Below, one piece after another: positions 40,448-48,287 of a DNA stretch of 53,882 bases; positions within the stretch are counted from its first letter, which is position 1; every line of letters begins with the position of its first letter. The position numbers and the translations under genes were made by a program. The stretch lies in the NCBI GenBank assembly GCA_945877525.1, contig CAMDVP010000001.1, positions 1 through 53,882 on the forward strand, written 5' to 3'. Source of the DNA: an uncultured Clostridia bacterium (GTDB lineage Bacteria; Bacillota; Clostridia; Christensenellales; Aristaeellaceae). Below the pieces are notes generated by a model. It did no database searches, was not told the origin of the DNA, and saw only the letters and a list, made by a program, of their open reading frames with translations.

Positions 40448-40906
40448 TCAGGAATCGTTTCGGGACAAACTCGAGAGATCACCGTTCTCGATCAGATCGT
40501 TAAGCTTAATCTGAAATTCAGCCAATGCGTCAATCATACGGCGCTCAATCTGCCGCCTCGACAAAAACAGGACAACCCCAAGCTCTTTCACAGATTTTCC
40601 TTCGATAAAGCGTCCGGAAAGCACGGTTGCATATTCGGGCTCCATTTTATCCAGTATGGTCAGGATTTCCCTCTGCCGTTTACACATACTGTTTCTCAGC
40701 TCCGAGATTTCTTCTTCGATATCGAGGATCATCGCCATTGTATCGGCCATTGTACTGACATTCGTGGTATGTGAGACCCGCTCCTTGTCCATTGGCGCAG
40801 TGATATTGCCTAAAGAGTCCCGCAGATGCTGTGCCTGGCGGATTTTGAGCTGTATTTTTTTCTCCATTGTTCGGATTGAATCAAGATAATCAAATGCCTT
40901 CAACAT
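40448..40906 (-). CDS. Sigma-70 region-4-like HTH protein (DUF1492/ArpU/RinA-like activator)
   Basis: C-terminus ATVLSGRFIEGKSVKELGVVLFLSRRQIERRMIDAL. ATG at 40906 follows GGAGGTG. Confidence 0.55.
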   Translation of the reverse strand: MLKAFDYLDSIRTMEKKIQLKIRQAQHLRDSLGNITAPMDKERVSHTTNVSTMADTMAMILDIEEEISELRNSMCKRQREILTILDKMEPEYATVLSGRFIEGKSVKELGVVLFLSRRQIERRMIDALAEFQIKLNDLIENGDLSSLSRNDS

Positions 40907-41174
40907 TGCCCAACACCTCCAAATCAAGCATCTTCAGAATTGCGGGGCCATTGTCCAGCCCGCTGAGTTTTTGGTACCAGATACCGAAGAAAAACTGGCT
41001 GATCGAGGTCATTTGTTGTCGGATATGCTTTTGCTCAGGGATACTTGGACTCTTATCAAGCTTCTTTGCCAAGTGTCTGTAATCGTCAGCAGCCTGTTTA
41101 ATCACAGCAATAGCAAGCTCCTGATAAGGATCACAAACCTGATTATCAGTTGTTTCAGGATGGATCAGCTTCAT
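40890..41174 (-). CDS. Hypothetical protein
   Basis: 94 aa with SD GGGAGGAAACGA and an ATGA overlap with the upstream gene. Confidence 0.5.
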   Translation of the reverse strand: MKLIHPETTDNQVCDPYQELAIAVIKQAADDYRHLAKKLDKSPSIPEQKHIRQQMTSISQFFFGIWYQKLSGLDNGPAILKMLDLEVLGNVEGI

Positions 41175-41932: not shown

Positions 41933-43969
41933 TTACGTCCTCCATTCTTCGGGAAGTTCGGCATCATCGACAGGCGTGAATTCGTGCATGGAGACTTGGG
42001 AAATTCTCTCGCTCCATGCGTGCTGTGGCGGTAAGCCCTTAACATCCGACATGGTTCGACTGCGTTTGTCGAAATACAGCATTACCATTTCATCCACTAC
42101 GCCAAGGTCACGGTTTTTCATGATCTCCAGCGCATTTCCTGTACCATCAGGAATGACCAGCTTGGGGTACACCATCTTGTAGCGTGATAGAAAATCTGCA
42201 TTGATCCGGTGAACCATGAATACATTGTCCGCTACATTGGTAATGTCGGACGTGCCACTGATGTCTCCTTTACGAAGAAATGCTTCGGTTTTGCGCGGGT
42301 GACAGATGAAGTGCAGATGGATGTTCAGTTCCTTTGCCATTGCTGAAAACCGCTTGACAATTCGCGTCTGCATATCGTATTTGTCCAGTGCACCGGTGGG
42401 AAGATCCAGCGCCATCAGGTTATCAATGATGGCAACAGATGCGCTGTTCTGCTTGACCCAGTCATAGACCGTATTCAACACTACTTCCCAGTCCGTTCCG
42501 AAGTCGTTGTCGTAGATGGCGAGCATACCGGAAAGCATGTCGTCCAGCTTTTGTTCGATACCCGGCTTCAGGCAATAGTGTCCGTGGCTCAACTTATCGG
42601 CTTCAACATTCTCTGGCCCCGCTGCTTGAAGAAGAATCCACTCGCGGACGCGGGATGCTGTCATTTCCCCAGAGAATAGTGCCACCTTGTATCCCTGAGT
42701 GATAGCAGCCAGCCCCAGCTGGCTCACGAGCGTACTCTTCCCGGATGCGTTGCTGCCACTCCAAACAGATAACTCACCTTTATTGAATCCACCAATCTTG
42801 GCATCCAGCTTGTCCAGGCGGGACCGTATCACGACGATTTTGCTGCGGTCATAGTTTGGAATTGAAGCAAAATCCAGCATCCGCGGATGAGTAGCCCCGC
42901 CCTCTATCGGGGATGAGCCAGACTGTGTTACCATTCTCTTTGGGGGCTCAAGAATTTTCGCAGCCTTATGGATGGAATAGGGGCTGTTTGCGTATGCTTC
43001 TGGATCGAGCTTCTCACGGAATTCGTGCCAATGATAGCCGGAGCAACTGTTGTGGAAACAGTGAAAGCCAAAGCTGCCGTCGTTGTAAGCAAATACCGCA
43101 GCATCACCATTGCGATGCGTACTATCAAAGGGACACTCTTCAAGCTGGTATTTGGTGCCGGTACTTATGACGATCTTCTTCAGGACTTGCACGGAATGGT
43201 CTGCCAGAAACTGCTCAAGGTTGAAAGCCTTTCCGTTGCGCTGCTTCGGATTCTCCGATGCCGATACCATGTCGCGGCGCACATTCGCTATGTTCTGTAC
43301 AAGCGCCATGGATGTTTCCTTAACCGGGTTGGGGTAACGGATTATCCTGCTGAAGCGATGCGGGCGTTCCGGCGTATCAGCGCCTTTTTGTGCCAATGTA
43401 CCATATAGCTTGGTTATCCGCGCTGGGTTAAACACAGAAGTGTCAATCTTTACGGTATCCGTGCTGAACCACATATCGAGTACCGCCAGCAAGTCGGCGA
43501 GTACTTGTTTTTCGTTGAGGCCTGCGTGAATCCTGAACAGAAGGTGATAGCCGTTGCCACTATCAGCGACGATCGGCTCACTGAAACCCATCGCCATCAG
43601 TTTCTTCATGGCTGTTCCCGCCACCTTACGGGCAGCTTCCTTCTCAGCCTTGGACGAACTGATACCGCTTGGCCTTACGGGATCGGCATCTACCAGAATC
43701 CATTGGTATCCGACAATGTCATTATCGCTGGTTGTTACATTCGGGCGCTCAACCAGCCTTTCATGCTGTTCTCTGGAATAGCACCCCTTCTTGATTCTGT
43801 TCAGTGTCTGATAAAAGGTTCTGTTAGGATACCGACTGAGCTCAGATTGAATGGCAGGACTGTTTGCTCTGAAGTAGCCGCTGACGATAGGCTTTGGCTC
43901 AATACTCCGAATTTCTACGATGTCCTCAGGGGCGTGGAGGAGGGAAAGCCAGTTTACCGAGAAACCCAT
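41933..43969 (-). CDS. Primase-helicase: AEP (Prim-Pol)-type primase, Cys/His zinc module and DnaB/RecA-like helicase ATPase
   Basis: AEP motifs WILVDADPVRP and ADSGNGYHLLF. Zinc-like module CPFDSTHRNG...FHCFHNSCSGYHWHEF. Walker A GSNASGKST and Walker B VAIIDNLMAL. ATG at 43969 follows GAGGAGGAAGAACT. Confidence 0.8.
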   Translation of the reverse strand: MGFSVNWLSLLHAPEDIVEIRSIEPKPIVSGYFRANSPAIQSELSRYPNRTFYQTLNRIKKGCYSREQHERLVERPNVTTSDNDIVGYQWILVDADPVRPSGISSSKAEKEAARKVAGTAMKKLMAMGFSEPIVADSGNGYHLLFRIHAGLNEKQVLADLLAVLDMWFSTDTVKIDTSVFNPARITKLYGTLAQKGADTPERPHRFSRIIRYPNPVKETSMALVQNIANVRRDMVSASENPKQRNGKAFNLEQFLADHSVQVLKKIVISTGTKYQLEECPFDSTHRNGDAAVFAYNDGSFGFHCFHNSCSGYHWHEFREKLDPEAYANSPYSIHKAAKILEPPKRMVTQSGSSPIEGGATHPRMLDFASIPNYDRSKIVVIRSRLDKLDAKIGGFNKGELSVWSGSNASGKSTLVSQLGLAAITQGYKVALFSGEMTASRVREWILLQAAGPENVEADKLSHGHYCLKPGIEQKLDDMLSGMLAIYDNDFGTDWEVVLNTVYDWVKQNSASVAIIDNLMALDLPTGALDKYDMQTRIVKRFSAMAKELNIHLHFICHPRKTEAFLRKGDISGTSDITNVADNVFMVHRINADFLSRYKMVYPKLVIPDGTGNALEIMKNRDLGVVDEMVMLYFDKRSRTMSDVKGLPPQHAWSERISQVSMHEFTPVDDAELPEEWRT

Positions 43970-44874
43970 AGTTCTTCCTCCTCGTCTTCTGCAGGCATAA
44001 CATAGTCTCGCCAGGTTTCTTTTTGCAGCCATTTGCTTATCCCCGGAATGAACCTTCCACCATCCTGCTGCCATGACTCAGAACACTTCGCAGCATTAAG
44101 GGCATCCATAATGGCTTGCGGTGTGGCTCCAAGAGAGATTGCCATTTGATACTGTCGAACTGCCTCGCTACGATCTGTGCGTCGGTCTTCAGGATAGGCG
44201 CACCACAACCCAACAAACCCATCCGGTTCACTTGAAAAGCATGTATTATTCTTATATTCTTGGTTAGGCCTAATTATTGGGCCACCACCGGCATGATTAT
44301 TAGGCCACTGTGGCCCGGTTTCTGGGCCATCGCCGGCCTGATTATTGGGCCACTGTGGCCTAATTTCCGAGCCACTCCCGGCCTGATTATTGGGCCACTG
44401 TGGCCTAATTTCCGAGCCATTCCCGGCCTGATTATTGGGCCACTGTGGCCTGGTTTCCGGGCCACAGGCGGTCTGATTATTGGGCCACTGTGATACGTGT
44501 GTTGTAACGGTAAGCGATTGGTTCCCTGACTCTTCTGAACTACCTGTTCTACGGCTGGTATAGCTGTCGAGCCAGCTCGTGACCCGAACCAGTGTTCCTG
44601 AGGATGTCTTTTTCATACAGATGCAACCAAGTTGCTCGAGTTCTGCGAATTTCTTTGCCAGTTTCTCGCGTGACCAGCGAAGTTCTGCAGCAGCATGACG
44701 AATAGACATTGGGAACTCGCCCGGATTGATTTTGTGTCCCTGCCAGAAATACGTATTCCAACTGGCTTTATACAGGCAGTAGTGATACAGCTTGAATAAG
44801 CCGTCATCGGGCCATATTGGACTACTTTGGAGGGACGGATACGACTTGACAAATCGCTCGTCCTTACTTGCCAT
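43954..44874 (-). CDS. Putative replication initiator/replisome organiser (winged-helix N-terminus, five 15-aa repeats, DnaD-like C-terminus)
   Basis: Its position directly upstream of the primase-helicase gene fits. The C-terminus reads WCAYPEDRR..SEA...Y......G...QAIMDAL......SWQQDGGRFIPGISKWLQKETWRDY. ATG at 44874 follows AAGGAGATTGTC. Confidence 0.55.
   Translation of the reverse strand: MASKDERFVKSYPSLQSSPIWPDDGLFKLYHYCLYKASWNTYFWQGHKINPGEFPMSIRHAAAELRWSREKLAKKFAELEQLGCICMKKTSSGTLVRVTSWLDSYTSRRTGSSEESGNQSLTVTTHVSQWPNNQTACGPETRPQWPNNQAGNGSEIRPQWPNNQAGSGSEIRPQWPNNQAGDGPETGPQWPNNHAGGGPIIRPNQEYKNNTCFSSEPDGFVGLWCAYPEDRRTDRSEAVRQYQMAISLGATPQAIMDALNAAKCSESWQQDGGRFIPGISKWLQKETWRDYVMPAEDEEEELWVSR
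44268..44492. repeat. About five tandem 45-bp repeats inside the initiator gene, each carrying the 13-bp palindrome GGCCACTGTGGCC; candidate iterons
   Basis: The palindrome occurs at 44303, 44348, 44393 and 44438, exactly 45 bp apart, with a truncated copy at 44483. Adjacent units differ by only 0-3 nt. Confidence 0.8.
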
Positions 44875-44987
44875 GACAATCTCCTTGTATTGGAGGTCGG
44901 CCGGCAGCACCAATGGCTGCCAGCCAAACCTCCGAATTTTTGAGCACTGTTACCGAAGTGCCGGTTCAACTTGTGCCGTTCATCGAA

Positions 44988-45425
44988 TCAGGGATGAATC
45001 ATCCCAAAGAGGAGGCTGCTCAGCAGCAAGCGTGCCTGCTGCTCATATTCCTCGTCCGGAAGCTGATCATTGCGGCATTCTTCTGCGCCATCACCTTCAT
45101 CATCATCCGGTTCATGCTGCCAACGCACTTCACCCTGTTCATCTGCTGCTTCGTCCGCTTCATATTCCTCATCATGCACATCATTGATTTCCTCCTCCGT
45201 TTCAATCACGGTGTCATTCTGATCATCGGTCACAAAGTGGCTGGAAACGTGAGCACACACATGCTCATTTACACAATACTCATGGATTGTCTCAATTCCC
45301 GATGTCTGGACAGCGCTTCCGAGCGACTGCTTCACGATATCAACAGATACAATAGTTTTGTTGGAACACAAAACTAATGAGGTGCTGGCAGCGTGATGAA
45401 GTGTGTTGTGAATCCTGTGCTGCAT
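44988..45425 (-). CDS. Hypothetical, strongly acidic protein
   Basis: Excellent SD AAGGAGGAAATCA. The C-terminal half is D/E-rich (DDQNDTVIETEEEINDVHDEEYEADEAADEQGE...DDDEGDGAEE). Confidence 0.55.
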   Translation of the reverse strand: MQHRIHNTLHHAASTSLVLCSNKTIVSVDIVKQSLGSAVQTSGIETIHEYCVNEHVCAHVSSHFVTDDQNDTVIETEEEINDVHDEEYEADEAADEQGEVRWQHEPDDDEGDGAEECRNDQLPDEEYEQQARLLLSSLLFGMIHP

Positions 45426-45514
45426 TGATTTCCTCCTTCTCAGGGAATTCGTATTTTCCCCTTCACTTAAGACATGGGTGAAAAACTGTCGAATGGAACC
45501 CTTGATACGGAAAT

Positions 45515-45994
45515 TCAGAAAAAAAGCTCTTTGTTCGCACGCAGCTGAGTAAGAAGCTTGAGCAGACGCCGGTTGATGCAGGAGTGTGACACATGCATCA
45601 GTCGCGCGATTTCTCGTTTTGAACGATGCTGCATGTAATGCATGGTCAACAGTGTGGCGCCAGATTCTGTGACCTGGTTGGCAAACTGCATGATTTCGTT
45701 GATGGTGTCCTTAAGCAAGAAGTCAGCTTCAATGTCTGTATCATCGACAAGGTTATATCGCGCTTCGGCTTCTTCAAAGTTTTCAATGATTCCCATACAT
45801 TTCCAGCGACATAGCTGACAATCACCACAGCAGAGCGAGTAGTTTGGCTGCGCACAACGATGTTCACGACGAGCTAAGTATCTGACATGGTTGTTTTCCT
45901 TGCGGATAGCTTTGATAACAGATTCGGGAACAGGTATTCTCTCTCGATTGATCGTAAGGTACATCGTGCTGACATGGTCAGCGGCCTGAGGCAT
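45515..45994 (-). CDS. Sigma-70 region-4-type HTH regulator with Cys-rich N-terminal part
   Basis: C-terminus ATLLTMHYMQHRSKREIARLMHVSHSCINRRLLKL and an N-terminal CCGDCQLCRWKC cluster. AAAGGAGGG lies 8 nt upstream of the ATG at 45994. Confidence 0.6.
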   Translation of the reverse strand: MPQAADHVSTMYLTINRERIPVPESVIKAIRKENNHVRYLARREHRCAQPNYSLCCGDCQLCRWKCMGIIENFEEAEARYNLVDDTDIEADFLLKDTINEIMQFANQVTESGATLLTMHYMQHRSKREIARLMHVSHSCINRRLLKLLTQLRANKELFF

Positions 45995-46000
45995 GGATAA

Positions 46001-46031
46001 GCCCTCCTTTCGGATGAGCCGAATGGAGGGC
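46001..46031 (-). promoter_or_regulatory. SD-sequestering hairpin in the leader of the sigma-like gene
   Basis: Minus-strand RNA reads GCCCUCC-A-UUCGG-CUCAU-CCGAA-A-GGAGGGC. This gives 12 bp plus one A.A mismatch, and the 3' arm contains the SD. Confidence 0.7.
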
Positions 46032-46081
46032 TAAAGCAAACACTGTCAGTGCATAGCTGAACAGCCGTTTGAAGAAGCAAT

Positions 46082-46093
46082 CTCCATTCGGCT
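46082..46093 (-). promoter_or_regulatory. Upstream 12-nt perfect complement to the anti-SD arm (candidate anti-anti-SD)
   Basis: AGCCGAAUGGAG (46093->46082) is the exact complement of CUCCAUUCGGCU (46028->46017). Confidence 0.6.
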
Positions 46094-46260
46094 ACAGCGG
46101 CACTTCCGATGCTGGCTGTATCGTATGATGTTCGAGGTGTTTCATGCGGAAGCGACTTTGATCAGAAGCCATCATGATTCATCTCGGCGATCTTTTTCCG
46201 GATCGCGTACATACAGTACCAGATTTCGCTTGAAAACCAAATTCAGTTTTTGAAAGATGA

Positions 46261-46285
46261 AAAGCCTTATAAATCAAGGCTTTTT
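46261..46285. terminator. Bidirectional-looking intrinsic terminator in the intergenic region
   Basis: AAAGCCTT-ataaatc-AAGGCTTT is followed by TT on the plus strand and by a T-rich tract on the minus strand. Confidence 0.5.
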
Positions 46286-46383
46286 GGGAATGCGTTATTT
46301 CGGCGGTTTTGAAAAACCTAGATATTTCAACGCTTTTTCGTTTTCGAGAATTTCAGGCTTTGAAATCCGAAAATGAAATTCTT

Positions 46384-46413
46384 CAAAAAAAAGGAACCGC
46401 TTCACAGCGGTTC
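46384..46413 (-). terminator. Intrinsic terminator after the 621-aa gene
   Basis: Minus strand reads GAACCGCT-gtga-AGCGGTTC followed by CTTTTTTTT, about 10 nt after the stop at 46422. Confidence 0.8.
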
Positions 46414-46421
46414 GAAACATC

Positions 46422-48287
46422 TTACTTATCAAATAGTTGCTTGTGTGTCTCTGTAATTGCGTAAATGTCGTCCATAAACATGCAGTCTATGATGCATTGG
46501 TACCTATAGTATCTAACCATGATTGTGCGTGTAAAGCCAACAATATCAAGAAACAAAGCAGAAAGGGGCGGGGGCAGTCGCAGTCCAACAACCAGCCGTG
46601 TCACGTCTTGAATGGAGTACCTGTAATTATCATCCTTGCACATTCTGCTAATTGTGGCAGGGCTTAAGCCGGAGTTCAATGACAACTCATTTTGCGTTCC
46701 AACACGATCAGCAATCAATTTCTTAAGTGCTGTTGTAGGGCGGCGAGGGAACGTATCCAGGTATTCCATGTTTTTCTCGATGACGTCTTCCGTAGTCATA
46801 CCTGTAATTTCCATCGTATGGATCGTCAGGTATACTTCATTATAGTCGGCGTCAGAGTGCAGTTCTCCCACCTGATAGCCAGTGGTCTCTGAAACATGAT
46901 AGGATTTATGGAAGCGCAAGCAGCATTCGTCGATGTGAGCCAGCGCCCACGCGGTCAACATGGCACGGTTTCCACTATTTCGAATAAACGGTGGAAGGTT
47001 ACAGCACACATGACCATCCGCATAGATATATTGATGTGTGCTGATCAGATTTCGGAAATCAGCATCCGTTTCATATAGGGCGGTGAACTGACTCCGGCTG
47101 ATGACAAAAGTATCATTTGAGCAGAGATTATCTGGATTGAAGGCAAATGGTTCAATATACTTGCCATCGACGAAGTTGTATGCGCCTTTCGCGCCAACAG
47201 ACCCCATCGTAATAAGCCTGGTCTTGATGAGCGACTTGGATTTTTGCTTGTCAGACGCAATCTGATATATTACATTTGAGATCTTTTGCCCCAAATTGAC
47301 CTGCGTATTGGCAACTTCGGCCCAATACTTATTTACAAGGGGAGTAATCACGGGACGAGGAAACATTGCGGCAATGCCAACAAAACTGGCCTGCCGTTCA
47401 ACCCATCGCACATCCTTCTCAGCTGGTTTGGAATGCTTGTCAGCTTCCACATATTTCAGCAGCCGAAGATCTGCAGCATGGAGTTCCTGCAGTTCAAAAA
47501 ACATGGAATGCCACTCGTAGTGCCCACATTCATGATAGATTTCACGCTCCATATCTCCTTGATGAAGCCTGTTCTCATTGATTAGGATTGTCTTTTCTGG
47601 GACTGTCATATCTTGAAAGCCTTCATCATCTGTCGCTGAACCTATTGCCCCGGAAGCAACTACTCGAGCATGTCCCTCTTTGAAATACAAAATGGCAGAA
47701 GTGTGATGATTACGATAAAGGGAAACGCGCTTAATCTTCAGCCCCATAGCTTCTGCCAGTGCTGTTGCGCCGTTTTCCTGATACGTCATGGCGGCATGCT
47801 CACCTATATACCTACGCAGCAACTGTAACACCATGATTTCCATCTCATCATAGGTTAGAACTGGCACAAGGTATTTCGACAGCCGTGGAAATTTGCGCTC
47901 AGGAAGACAACAGGTACTGAGCTCCTTGATACCCGGATGCAGCGTGATGCCGCCATCAAGCGTGAATTCAGTAGAAAAGTTGATGTAGCGGACATAGTAT
48001 CTGGGAATACCGCTGTCTTGAGATAGTCCGATTTTGGTTCGCATTCGGATATCAGCGAGAAGATGAGTCCTGTCTTTCCACCACAGATCCGTGCGAACAA
48101 TCTTGCTATCGTTCCGATCAACAACCACTTTTCCATTGCCAACATCAATTTCCAGGTTTTCAACGATGCCAAGTTCAATCCCGGCACAGACTTCATCCAG
48201 CAGTTCATCCATATAGTGATTGCTGATGTAGTCCTGCATGTTCTGCAACACAGGAGCAACTGCTTTTTTCTTACCCTGTTCGCTCAT
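46422..48287 (-). CDS. Large ImmA/IrrE (M78)-type HExxH metallopeptidase-domain protein with C-terminal HTH
   Basis: ALAEAMGLKIKRV...ILINEN...EREIYHECGHYEWH...VERQASFVGIAAMFP matches the ImmA/IrrE pattern. The C-terminus TQNELSLNSGLSPATISRMCKD is HTH-like. The N-terminal part (about 150 aa) and the middle part (about 190 aa) are unassigned. Confidence 0.7.
   Translation of the reverse strand: MSEQGKKKAVAPVLQNMQDYISNHYMDELLDEVCAGIELGIVENLEIDVGNGKVVVDRNDSKIVRTDLWWKDRTHLLADIRMRTKIGLSQDSGIPRYYVRYINFSTEFTLDGGITLHPGIKELSTCCLPERKFPRLSKYLVPVLTYDEMEIMVLQLLRRYIGEHAAMTYQENGATALAEAMGLKIKRVSLYRNHHTSAILYFKEGHARVVASGAIGSATDDEGFQDMTVPEKTILINENRLHQGDMEREIYHECGHYEWHSMFFELQELHAADLRLLKYVEADKHSKPAEKDVRWVERQASFVGIAAMFPRPVITPLVNKYWAEVANTQVNLGQKISNVIYQIASDKQKSKSLIKTRLITMGSVGAKGAYNFVDGKYIEPFAFNPDNLCSNDTFVISRSQFTALYETDADFRNLISTHQYIYADGHVCCNLPPFIRNSGNRAMLTAWALAHIDECCLRFHKSYHVSETTGYQVGELHSDADYNEVYLTIHTMEITGMTTEDVIEKNMEYLDTFPRRPTTALKKLIADRVGTQNELSLNSGLSPATISRMCKDDNYRYSIQDVTRLVVGLRLPPPLSALFLDIVGFTRTIMVRYYRYQCIIDCMFMDDIYAITETHKQLFDK

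Follow-up and report, generated by a model that had tools for sequence, protein, structure and literature searches.

The 53,882-nt window analyzed here (contig CAMDVP010000001.1, positions 1 to 53,882, from an uncultured Clostridia bacterium) carries an integrative conjugative element (ICE) in which the gene for a 159-aa sigma-like protein (45515-45994, minus strand) is preceded by a long leader that is probably a previously undescribed RNA switch controlling when the element becomes active. There is little doubt that a conserved, structured cis-leader RNA of about 210 nt exists. The favored, though less assured, interpretation is that the leader (about 46206-45995; all leader coordinates are on the minus strand) acts in cis as a structured RNA, has its own extended -10 promoter, and can adopt two mutually exclusive global folds, and it is likewise somewhat probable that switching proceeds through pairing between an upstream 12-mer and the strand that otherwise sequesters the Shine-Dalgarno (SD) sequence. 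An initial annotation of the same DNA had proposed a three-part switch of SD, anti-SD, and anti-anti-SD with a possible leader peptide. The sequence features on which that model was built lie where it had placed them, far beyond chance; the model itself proved incomplete, lacking a hairpin that locks the anti-anti-SD (P1), a pair of competing helices (P3 and P4), a conserved 5' domain of about 120 nt, and a possible terminator role.

Sequestering Hairpin, Invariant 12-mer, and Possible Alternative Helix

The SD-sequestering hairpin (46000-46032) joins an anti-SD arm (46031-46019) to a 3' arm that contains the SD GGAGG (46007-46003); it reads GCCCUCC-A-UUCGG-CUCAU-CCGAA-A-GGAGGGC from 46031 to 46001, with 12 bp, and is followed by a U-rich tract (46000-45995) and by the start codon (45994-45992), which lies 8 nt past AAAGGAGGG. 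Found exactly where it had been annotated, the hairpin folds in isolation at -22.5 kcal/mol (z = -3.4) and is conserved across lineages. Upstream lies an invariant 12-mer, AGCCGAAUGGAG (46082-46093), which resembles an SD and would act as the anti-anti-SD or antiterminator strand, and which, as annotated, is the exact reverse complement of CUCCAUUCGGCU (46028 to 46017). Exactly two exact matches to the 12-mer occur in the 53.9-kb window, namely the two partners themselves; 0.39 matches with one mismatch would be expected by chance on both strands of the whole window, and the probability of an exact match within 100 nt is about 1e-5 by our own arithmetic.

Twenty distinct leaders from about 13 lineages were aligned and assessed by RNAalifold consensus folding and explicit pair counts (related loci are given L numbers below). 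Pairing between the 11 central positions of the 12-mer and the anti-SD arm is possible in 219 of 220 cells (99.5%) across these 20 leaders. While the 12-mer itself does not vary, the anti-SD arm has three variable positions, at which only transitions occur and G.U pairing is retained with both the SD arm and the 12-mer; all three of these one-sided changes yield G.U pairs in the alternative helix. The SD hairpin is 97% paired across the leaders, with one compensatory pair, 15 G.U cells, and loops that are free to differ. In 18 of the 20 leaders, the SD arm faces the anti-SD arm with an A.A mismatch (A202), at which the 12-mer has the complementary U.

The 12-mer is also the 5' strand of a further hairpin that was absent from the annotated model: P1 (46063-46093; AGCCG/CGGCU plus UGGAGA/UCUUCA), which appears in both the minimum-energy and the consensus folds and is 97-99% paired across the leaders. 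The partner strand in P1 changes in both sequence and register between lineages (UCUUCA, UUCCAU, UCCAUU) and the 12-mer remains fixed, so P1 pairing alone does not explain the invariance of the 12-mer. Together, the shifting P1 partner and the U opposite the A.A mismatch argue, at the level of sequence comparison, that the complementarity between the 12-mer and the anti-SD arm is selected rather than accidental. The annotated scheme, in which two mutually exclusive pairings compete and the long-range one frees the SD, thus stands as far as the complementarity is concerned, which is conserved and recurs in a very distant leader (L054), but not in its assumption that the 12-mer is free, as it is held in P1. 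Since P1 locks the 12-mer, the system is a chain of at least four competing elements. An extension of P1 by GCUG/CAGC, present in the minimum-energy fold of the window, was rejected because its 3' partner varies without compensation. CsrA-type binding at two sites (the GGA motifs in the 12-mer and the SD) was set aside, the first GGA being paired in P1 and looped only in L054.

The leader is better conserved than the genes around it. Between 46280 and 46040, the window is 95-98% identical to L001 and 90-93% identical to L007, as compared with 88-93% and 75-88%, respectively, in the flanking coding sequences, and the 100 nt of intergenic DNA just upstream of the leader are about 50% identical in the same comparisons. 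Lineages were gathered by a representative search and cluster look-ups, with a protein profile search adding three new proteins, and the SD hairpin together with the upstream 12-mer was found in at least 13 divergent lineages of the homologous gene, whose proteins are 26-37% identical; the leader was recognized in L017, L018, L036, L037-41, L042-46, L047-48, L049-52, and L053. Sixteen of 17 metagenome matches to the P1 pattern carry the leader, the remaining one (L030) being a chance match. Searches with nhmmer returned exactly one leader copy per locus, always abutting the start codon of the homologue of the 159-aa gene, while the leader gave no BLASTN match in phage or plasmid collections, and two pattern scans of viral contigs yielded no leader. 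The leader of L054, which nhmmer cannot align and which represents a 14th lineage, has the same three-part layout in a shifted register, with a long P1 hairpin containing GAAUGGAG, an anti-SD UUCUCCAUUC, and an SD arm GAAUGGAGGA; judged from its sequence, it is independent support for the three-part relation.

Covariation and the 5' Domain

The three annotated elements occupy the 3' end of the structured leader. Homologous leaders, in which the initial annotation had suggested looking for covariation, display it in P0, Px, P2, a pseudoknot, P3, P4, and the SD hairpin. P0 (46187-46206; GCGAUC-loop-GAUCGC) is a 5'-terminal hairpin that is present in every lineage, each time with a different sequence. 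The Px helix (46133-46186), formed by CGAGAUG (46186-46180) and CACCUCG (46139-46133), encloses P2 and one strand of the pseudoknot, and its duplex covaries in every lineage, reading CGAGAUG/CAUCUCG in L007, CCGCUGCA/UGCAGCGG in L036, and CAGGAAAGCA/UGCUUCCUG in L053. P2 (46154-46170; GGCUU-CUGAUCA-AAGUC) has a conserved loop, three of its five pairs are changed on both sides, and 95% of its cells are paired. The pseudoknot strand CUUCCG (46147-46152) is complementary to CGGAAG (46108-46103), with 120 of 120 cells paired and replacement of G-C by A-U on both sides in L017, L021, and L053.

Two further helices share a strand. P3 (46094-46119; ACAGC-CA-GCAU-CGGAA-GUGC-C-GCUGU) pairs strands S1 and S2, is 100% paired, and has an outer pair that alternates between A-U and G-C. 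Its 5' strand S1 (46119-46111) can instead pair with S3 (GCACUGACAGU, 46052-46042) to form P4, which is mutually exclusive with P3; P4 is 90% paired and has four pairs with changes on both sides, S3 covarying in L007, L047, L053, and L018. For P2, the pseudoknot, P4, P1, and the SD hairpin taken together, 96% of cells are paired (97.6% for the set with P3), and pairing falls to 34-51% when partners are slid by 1-3 columns. Nine pairs are changed on both sides, as compared with 4.6 in shuffled alignments, none of 500 shuffles reaching nine. G.U cells outnumber A.C cells by 49 to 17, an excess that assigns the structure to the transcribed sense strand.

A structured, sensor-like 5' domain backed by covariation, of the kind expected of a riboswitch, is therefore present, and it matches no catalogued RNA. 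A search of 45400-46800 of the window against Rfam 15 (4227 models, E<=10) gave chance matches only (at most 16.7 bits, against gathering scores of 41-279), none of them over 45995-46206 on the minus strand; the whole window gave no match at the gathering threshold, and five related loci searched at E<=1 gave only gut-2, which is located elsewhere in L042. No description of the leader was found in the literature. Resemblances to T-box and hammerhead RNAs were considered and dropped, as there is no Rfam match and the core sequences do not fit. An RNA thermometer was likewise discarded, as a sequestering hairpin of 12 bp at -22.5 kcal/mol, with 16 perfect bp in L053, would be too stable to melt.

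Predicted Folding Energies and the Nascent Transcript

For the 201-nt leader, the minimum folding energy is -71.8 kcal/mol (z = -3.9), a value reached by none of 200 shuffles, and folding of the minus strand, the check originally suggested, produces the SD hairpin and places the 12-mer inside P1 (46093-46063). Forcing the long-range pairing in the window costs 2.4-7.9 kcal/mol, depending on transcript boundaries. Across lineages, the cost of this ON state ranges from -3 to +26 kcal/mol, and the full-length minimum-energy fold is the OFF state (P4, P1, and SD hairpin) in all lineages but one. In 10 of 14 lineages, the minimum-energy fold of a nascent transcript that extends just past the anti-SD comprises P3 and all 11 bp of the alternative helix, as expected of an antiterminator or anti-sequestor that acts before the 3' arm has been made.

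Transcription of the Leader

The predicted promoter (46213-46240) combines a weak -35 element, TTGGTT (46240-46235), with an extended -10 element, TGgTACTGT (46221-46213), and places the transcription start site (TSS) of the leader at about 46206. It is missed by a consensus promoter scan because the -35 element is weak, and the pattern TGnTAYnnT is shared by the window type, L019, L017, L021, and L053, where it precedes P0 by 6-8 nt. In six metatranscriptome runs from four studies, the upstream ends of leader contigs lie at 46199, 46199, 46197, 46196, 46188, and 46173, and no RNA contig spans 46210-46480 in the four paired-end gut metatranscriptomes of study P2. RNA beginning at about 46199 includes the 12-mer at 46082-46093, and with contig starts at 46173-46199 the TSS does not fall downstream of 46031, which the initial annotation had named as a refuting outcome. 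Three contigs cover the leader only (45994-46188, 45984-46173, and 46031-46197) and offer weak evidence of a stable or prematurely terminated leader RNA. The leaders of L036, L042, L047, and L049 lack a dedicated promoter and follow an intrinsic terminator, the operon being driven by a strong repressor-divergent promoter about 500 nt upstream.

An imperfect inverted repeat, CTGAAnnnGGTTTTCAG (46229-46246), overlies the -35 region in the window type, L001, L007, L019, and L053; it is shared by the lineages with the extended -10 pattern, L017 and L021 included, and its sequence could be that of an operator. Of the two terminators that had been annotated between the leader and the upstream operon, the one at 46384-46413, which follows the genes for an IMS polymerase and a 621-aa protein, was recovered by the terminator scan as an 8-bp stem (46413-46394) preceding a T run; the other, a short hairpin (46260-46285; GCCUU-GAUUUAU-AAGGC, 5 bp and then a T run) whose A/U-run flanks make it resemble a bidirectional terminator, was read from the sequence but was not flagged by the scan. 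Hairpins of different sequence occupy the latter position in L021 and L053. As a separate observation, a 33-nt piece (46252-46284) of this GCCUUGAUUUAUAAGGC hairpin region recurs with entirely different flanks in RNA contigs of three runs and appears to be shared with another, unrelated transcribed locus.

Proposed Mechanism and Competing Explanations

In the proposed OFF fold, the 12-mer would be locked in P1, S1 would pair with S3 to form P4, and the anti-SD arm would pair with the SD and block ribosome binding; in lineages with a good U tract, transcription would probably also terminate just before the start codon. In the ON fold, S1 would pair with S2 to form P3, whose loop could dock on the 5' domain via the CUUCCG:CGGAAG pseudoknot, and the 12-mer would form 11 bp without mismatch with the anti-SD arm, leaving the SD single-stranded and preventing the terminator. 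Since RNA polymerase reaches the SD arm only after the 12-mer and the anti-SD, the choice is probably co-transcriptional, and it would be set by whatever shifts the balance between P1/P4 and P3 plus the pseudoknot. We infer that the two folds interconvert in vivo and that the 5' domain (Px-P2-pseudoknot) serves as the sensor, be it of a small molecule, a protein, or folding kinetics. A more specific proposal, that Px-P2, the pseudoknot, and P3/P4 constitute a new riboswitch class that binds a metabolite or second messenger and gates a sigma-like activator in ICEs of gut Lachnospiraceae, is of rather low probability.

Several observations weigh against a switch of this kind. Chief among them, the alternative helix contains no compensatory (double-sided) change, as the 12-mer is invariant, and the case for it is one of conservation and complementarity rather than covariation. 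The ON state is 5-26 kcal/mol less stable than the OFF state in most lineages, so a kinetic route or a factor would be needed, and P4 is weak in the window itself, where it has two mismatches. The aligned leaders represent about 14 lineages of common ancestry, and related sequences can exceed shuffle controls. The RNA evidence consists of assembled contigs that carry no strand information, and two of the runs (X1 and X6) also contain contigs that cross the predicted TSS, through read-through or DNA. Finally, the terminator role is doubtful in the window, in which the tract past the stem reads UUAUCC.

Some of these points would be accommodated by a leader that does not switch, in which 5' hairpins stabilize the mRNA, the SD hairpin keeps a potentially toxic regulator at low levels, and the 12-mer is conserved for P1 or for protein binding. 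The lack of compensatory change in the alternative helix is consistent with such a static leader, as are the dominance of the OFF state, which is the minimum-energy fold nearly everywhere by up to 26 kcal/mol, and the position of P0 at the predicted 5' end, where it resembles the stabilizing 5' stem-loops known in Firmicutes. It is nevertheless unlikely: the 12-mer is invariant though its P1 partner changes sequence and register, the anti-SD is complemented better by the 12-mer than by the SD arm, and L054, although unalignable, shows the triple relation again. In addition, the GCAGC/GCUGC/CAGCC/GGCUG repeats give rise to two covariation-backed helices (P3 and P4) that are unable to coexist, and with an SD permanently buried at -22 kcal/mol there would be next to no expression of the gene.

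The U tract past the hairpin bears on a second alternative, in which the leader is mainly a transcription attenuator, with the 12-mer as antiterminator, P1 as anti-antiterminator, and control by premature termination. UUU directly follows GGAGGGC across the leaders, and the number of U residues in the 8 nt past the stem ranges from 3 to 7 by lineage. In L053, which has seven, the 16-bp hairpin and UUUUUUU were scored as an intrinsic terminator, and nine of the 20 aligned leaders (L001, L007, L016, L018, L021, L042, L047, L049, and L052) have five or six; the window, L019, L036, and L037 have only three or four, interrupted (four in the window, three in L036), and L054 has none. The tract of the window reads UUAUCCAU, with an A at 45998 on the minus strand (CUUAUCC) where U is found in close relatives and in the majority of RNA and metagenome variants (CUUUUCC), and the window copy may by its sequence be a weakened-terminator variant. 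That most natural variants have this U would favor attenuation, as would the ends of leader-only RNA contigs at 45994 and 45984 and the fact that Firmicute riboswitches usually act by termination control. These contig ends are at 2-3x depth and constitute weak evidence, however, and the SD always lies inside the hairpin, whose 3' arm ends 6-9 nt before the start codon, as befits a translational sequestor. A role mainly in attenuation is accordingly judged quite unlikely; it also overlaps with the switch proposed above, as the hairpin may serve as terminator and SD sequestor at once, the balance between the two varying among lineages.

The initial annotation had also considered a leader peptide, encoded by a 27-codon open reading frame (ORF) whose location (46175-46092) and whose UAG stop (46094-46092), overlapping the 12-mer, were both verified. 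A ribosome terminating at this UAG would occlude the 12-mer and allow the SD hairpin to form, and 19 of 19 complete leaders have an in-frame AUG or GUG at this position. Yet no SD-like sequence occurs in the 16 nt before the ORF start in any lineage, and the length of the ORF is not conserved, ranging from 14 to more than 63 codons (14, 15, 16, 27, or 45 codons, or continuing open as far as the main start). Overlap of the stop with the 12-mer is confined to the window type (window, L001, L007, and L016); the stop lies 35-42 nt before it in L017, L036, L037, and L047 and 53 nt after it in L053, and is missing before the main start in L019, L021, L042, and L049. The apparent peptide start, M-x-x-D-Q-x-R-F, coincides with the covarying P2 stem-loop (codons 2-7) and pseudoknot strand; codons 2-3 and codon 6 change together such that base pairs are kept (GGCUU/AAGUC, GGUUC/GAACC, GGCCC/GGGUC), a pattern of nucleotide pairing rather than of amino-acid conservation. 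The ORF was thus judged not to encode a conserved functional leader peptide: participation of such a peptide in the mechanism is highly doubtful, and control of the switch by its translation very unlikely. The case shows that a covarying stem-loop can mimic a conserved leader peptide.

Least probable of all is a role at the DNA or single-stranded DNA level (single-strand origin, single-strand promoter, or operator sites) or as a trans-acting small RNA, which would suit an element of which one strand passes through a single-stranded stage, a location just upstream of a replication module with DnaD-like protein and DnaB-like helicase, and leader-only contigs that could reflect a stable small RNA, but which is at odds with a G.U to A.C ratio of 49:17 that fits RNA or the sense strand only, with a last helix that in every lineage includes the SD and stops 6-9 nt short of the start codon, with a promoter placed exactly at the RNA 5' end, and with the single copy per element, always attached to a homologue of the 159-aa gene.

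Regulated Gene and Conjugative Element

The 159-aa protein encoded downstream of the leader (45515-45994) is a member of a family comprising about 120 clusters at 50% identity and was annotated as a sigma-like regulator, a description that holds for its C-terminal, region 4-like DNA-binding half but not for its N-terminal half, which is without region 2. The C-terminal half matches sigma region 3/4 models of Pfam and NCBIfam, all below curated cut-offs, and in an AlphaFold2 model (predicted local distance difference test score 87), the C-terminal domain, which has a sigma region 4-like helix-turn-helix (HTH), superposes on sigma region 4; Foldseek comparison of the model gave template-modeling scores of 0.65-0.79 on sigma-4 chains, with no match reaching E<=0.001. 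No sigma region 2 was found, the Pfam and NCBIfam sigma matches being confined to the C-terminal half, and the protein was therefore not classed as a full sigma-70 family member with regions 2 and 4. Ahead of the sigma-4-like domain are four cysteines that are invariant in the family (C47, C55, C59, and C62; RCxQ...CxGDCxxCxW), and this pattern suggests a zinc-binding module that replaces sigma region 2. The role of ICE "master activator" that had been called probable for the protein is a putative one, suggested by gene order and position. A second 159-aa ORF of the ICE (40448-40927, minus strand) has sigma region-4 and ECF Pfam matches; it has no sequence similarity to the protein at 45515-45994 (BLASTP E = 11) and no long leader.

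The ICE setting that had been proposed was borne out by a type IV secretion system, an integrase, and an ImmR/ImmA-like module. Encoded in the window are a VirD4-type coupling protein, a VirB4/TraG-like ATPase, a tyrosine integrase, an NlpC/P60 hydrolase, a CD1107-like protein, topoisomerase III, and SpaA-type surface proteins, while an HTH_3 repressor and an M78 (ImmA/IrrE-like) peptidase form the ImmR/ImmA-like module, divergent from the operon that contains the leader locus. Gene order is kept in relatives, running from the repressor through a divergent Y-family polymerase, a 621-aa (or 60-aa) protein, the terminator, and the leader to the 159-aa gene, which is followed by a 145-aa gene, a DnaD-like gene, and the DnaB-like helicase gene of the replication module. 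Among species-representative genomes, the sole match is one locus in an Acetatifactor metagenome-assembled genome (Lachnospiraceae). One protein associated with these ICEs is indexed in 672 blocks of an assembly collection, and such ICE lineages are common in human and pig gut metagenomes.

Several neighbors have features of their own. The 621-aa protein upstream of the leader (46422-48287, minus strand) combines an HExxH-like motif (YHECGHYEWH) with a Cro/C1-type HTH at its C terminus, and its best-fitting family is phrog_4031 (E = 7e-60); its gene is replaced by the 60-aa gene in other lineages and is thus not required for the leader. The 319-aa DnaD-like ORF (43954-44913, minus strand) contains four tandem units of about 14 aa (RPQWPNNQAGxGxE) at about 44270-44480, a segment that is the least conserved part of the region among relatives (47-70% identity). 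In L042, a gut-2 RNA (Rfam RF02990; 2684-2730 of that locus, 49.9 bits against a gathering score of 39.8) follows the first small gene of the derepressed operon and comes before the intrinsic terminator located immediately ahead of the leader. The gut-2 block is conserved in L036, L047, and L049 as well and is absent from the window; ICE lineages of the L042 type thus have two structured RNAs in series.

Relation to Known Systems and Significance

Leaders built from a terminator or SD-sequestor, an antiterminator or anti-sequestor, and an anti-antiterminator are familiar from the S-box/SAM-I and other Firmicute riboswitches. The present leader resembles them in its long 5' domain, which is conserved and has covarying helices as well as a pseudoknot, and in a putative platform of mutually exclusive helices further on, of which the last hairpin holds the SD (and, in some lineages, a U tract) and in which transcription order would decide; it differs in matching no Rfam 15 model, in employing an invariant SD look-alike as anti-sequestor, and in preceding a mobile-element regulator rather than a metabolic or transporter gene, in a context that gives no hint of a ligand. 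Attenuation through leader peptides is exemplified by the orf12 leader of tet(M) in Tn916, by ermC, and by the trp operon, and the genes downstream of the Tn916 attenuator include the sigma-like orf7. As in the tet(M) leader, alternative helices lie upstream of regulatory genes of a conjugative element, and a short ORF overlaps the first helices; unlike in these attenuators, the ORF has no SD, its length and stop are not conserved, and its conserved part is an RNA stem-loop. The MS2 maturation gene and hok mRNA have kinetically controlled leaders, in which only the nascent RNA is translatable. Computed folds of the present leader likewise hide the SD in the full-length equilibrium structure and expose it in a co-transcriptional intermediate, and by analogy the leader may share kinetic control with these two, although its elaborate conserved 5' domain would not be needed for a simple timer. 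The gut-2 RNA shares these operons with the leader but is a separate motif of 48 nt, located about 60 nt upstream of it. The leader is, in sum, a new RNA motif with what is probably an expression platform of a familiar type in an unusual place, where it would gate the regulator of a conjugative element.

The ICEs of gut Firmicutes move resistance and fitness genes, and their activation beyond the repressor/antirepressor step is little understood. The leader described herein probably represents a second, post-initiation checkpoint on such an ICE, conserved across many lineages. If the RNA senses a signal, it would impose host-derived control on conjugation, and if it is a folding timer, it would confine the regulator to a pulse; in both cases, the leader offers a defined and mutable element with which the gating of ICE induction may be studied. 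Should the riboswitch proposal prove true, the leader would tie horizontal gene transfer directly to host physiology at the level of RNA.

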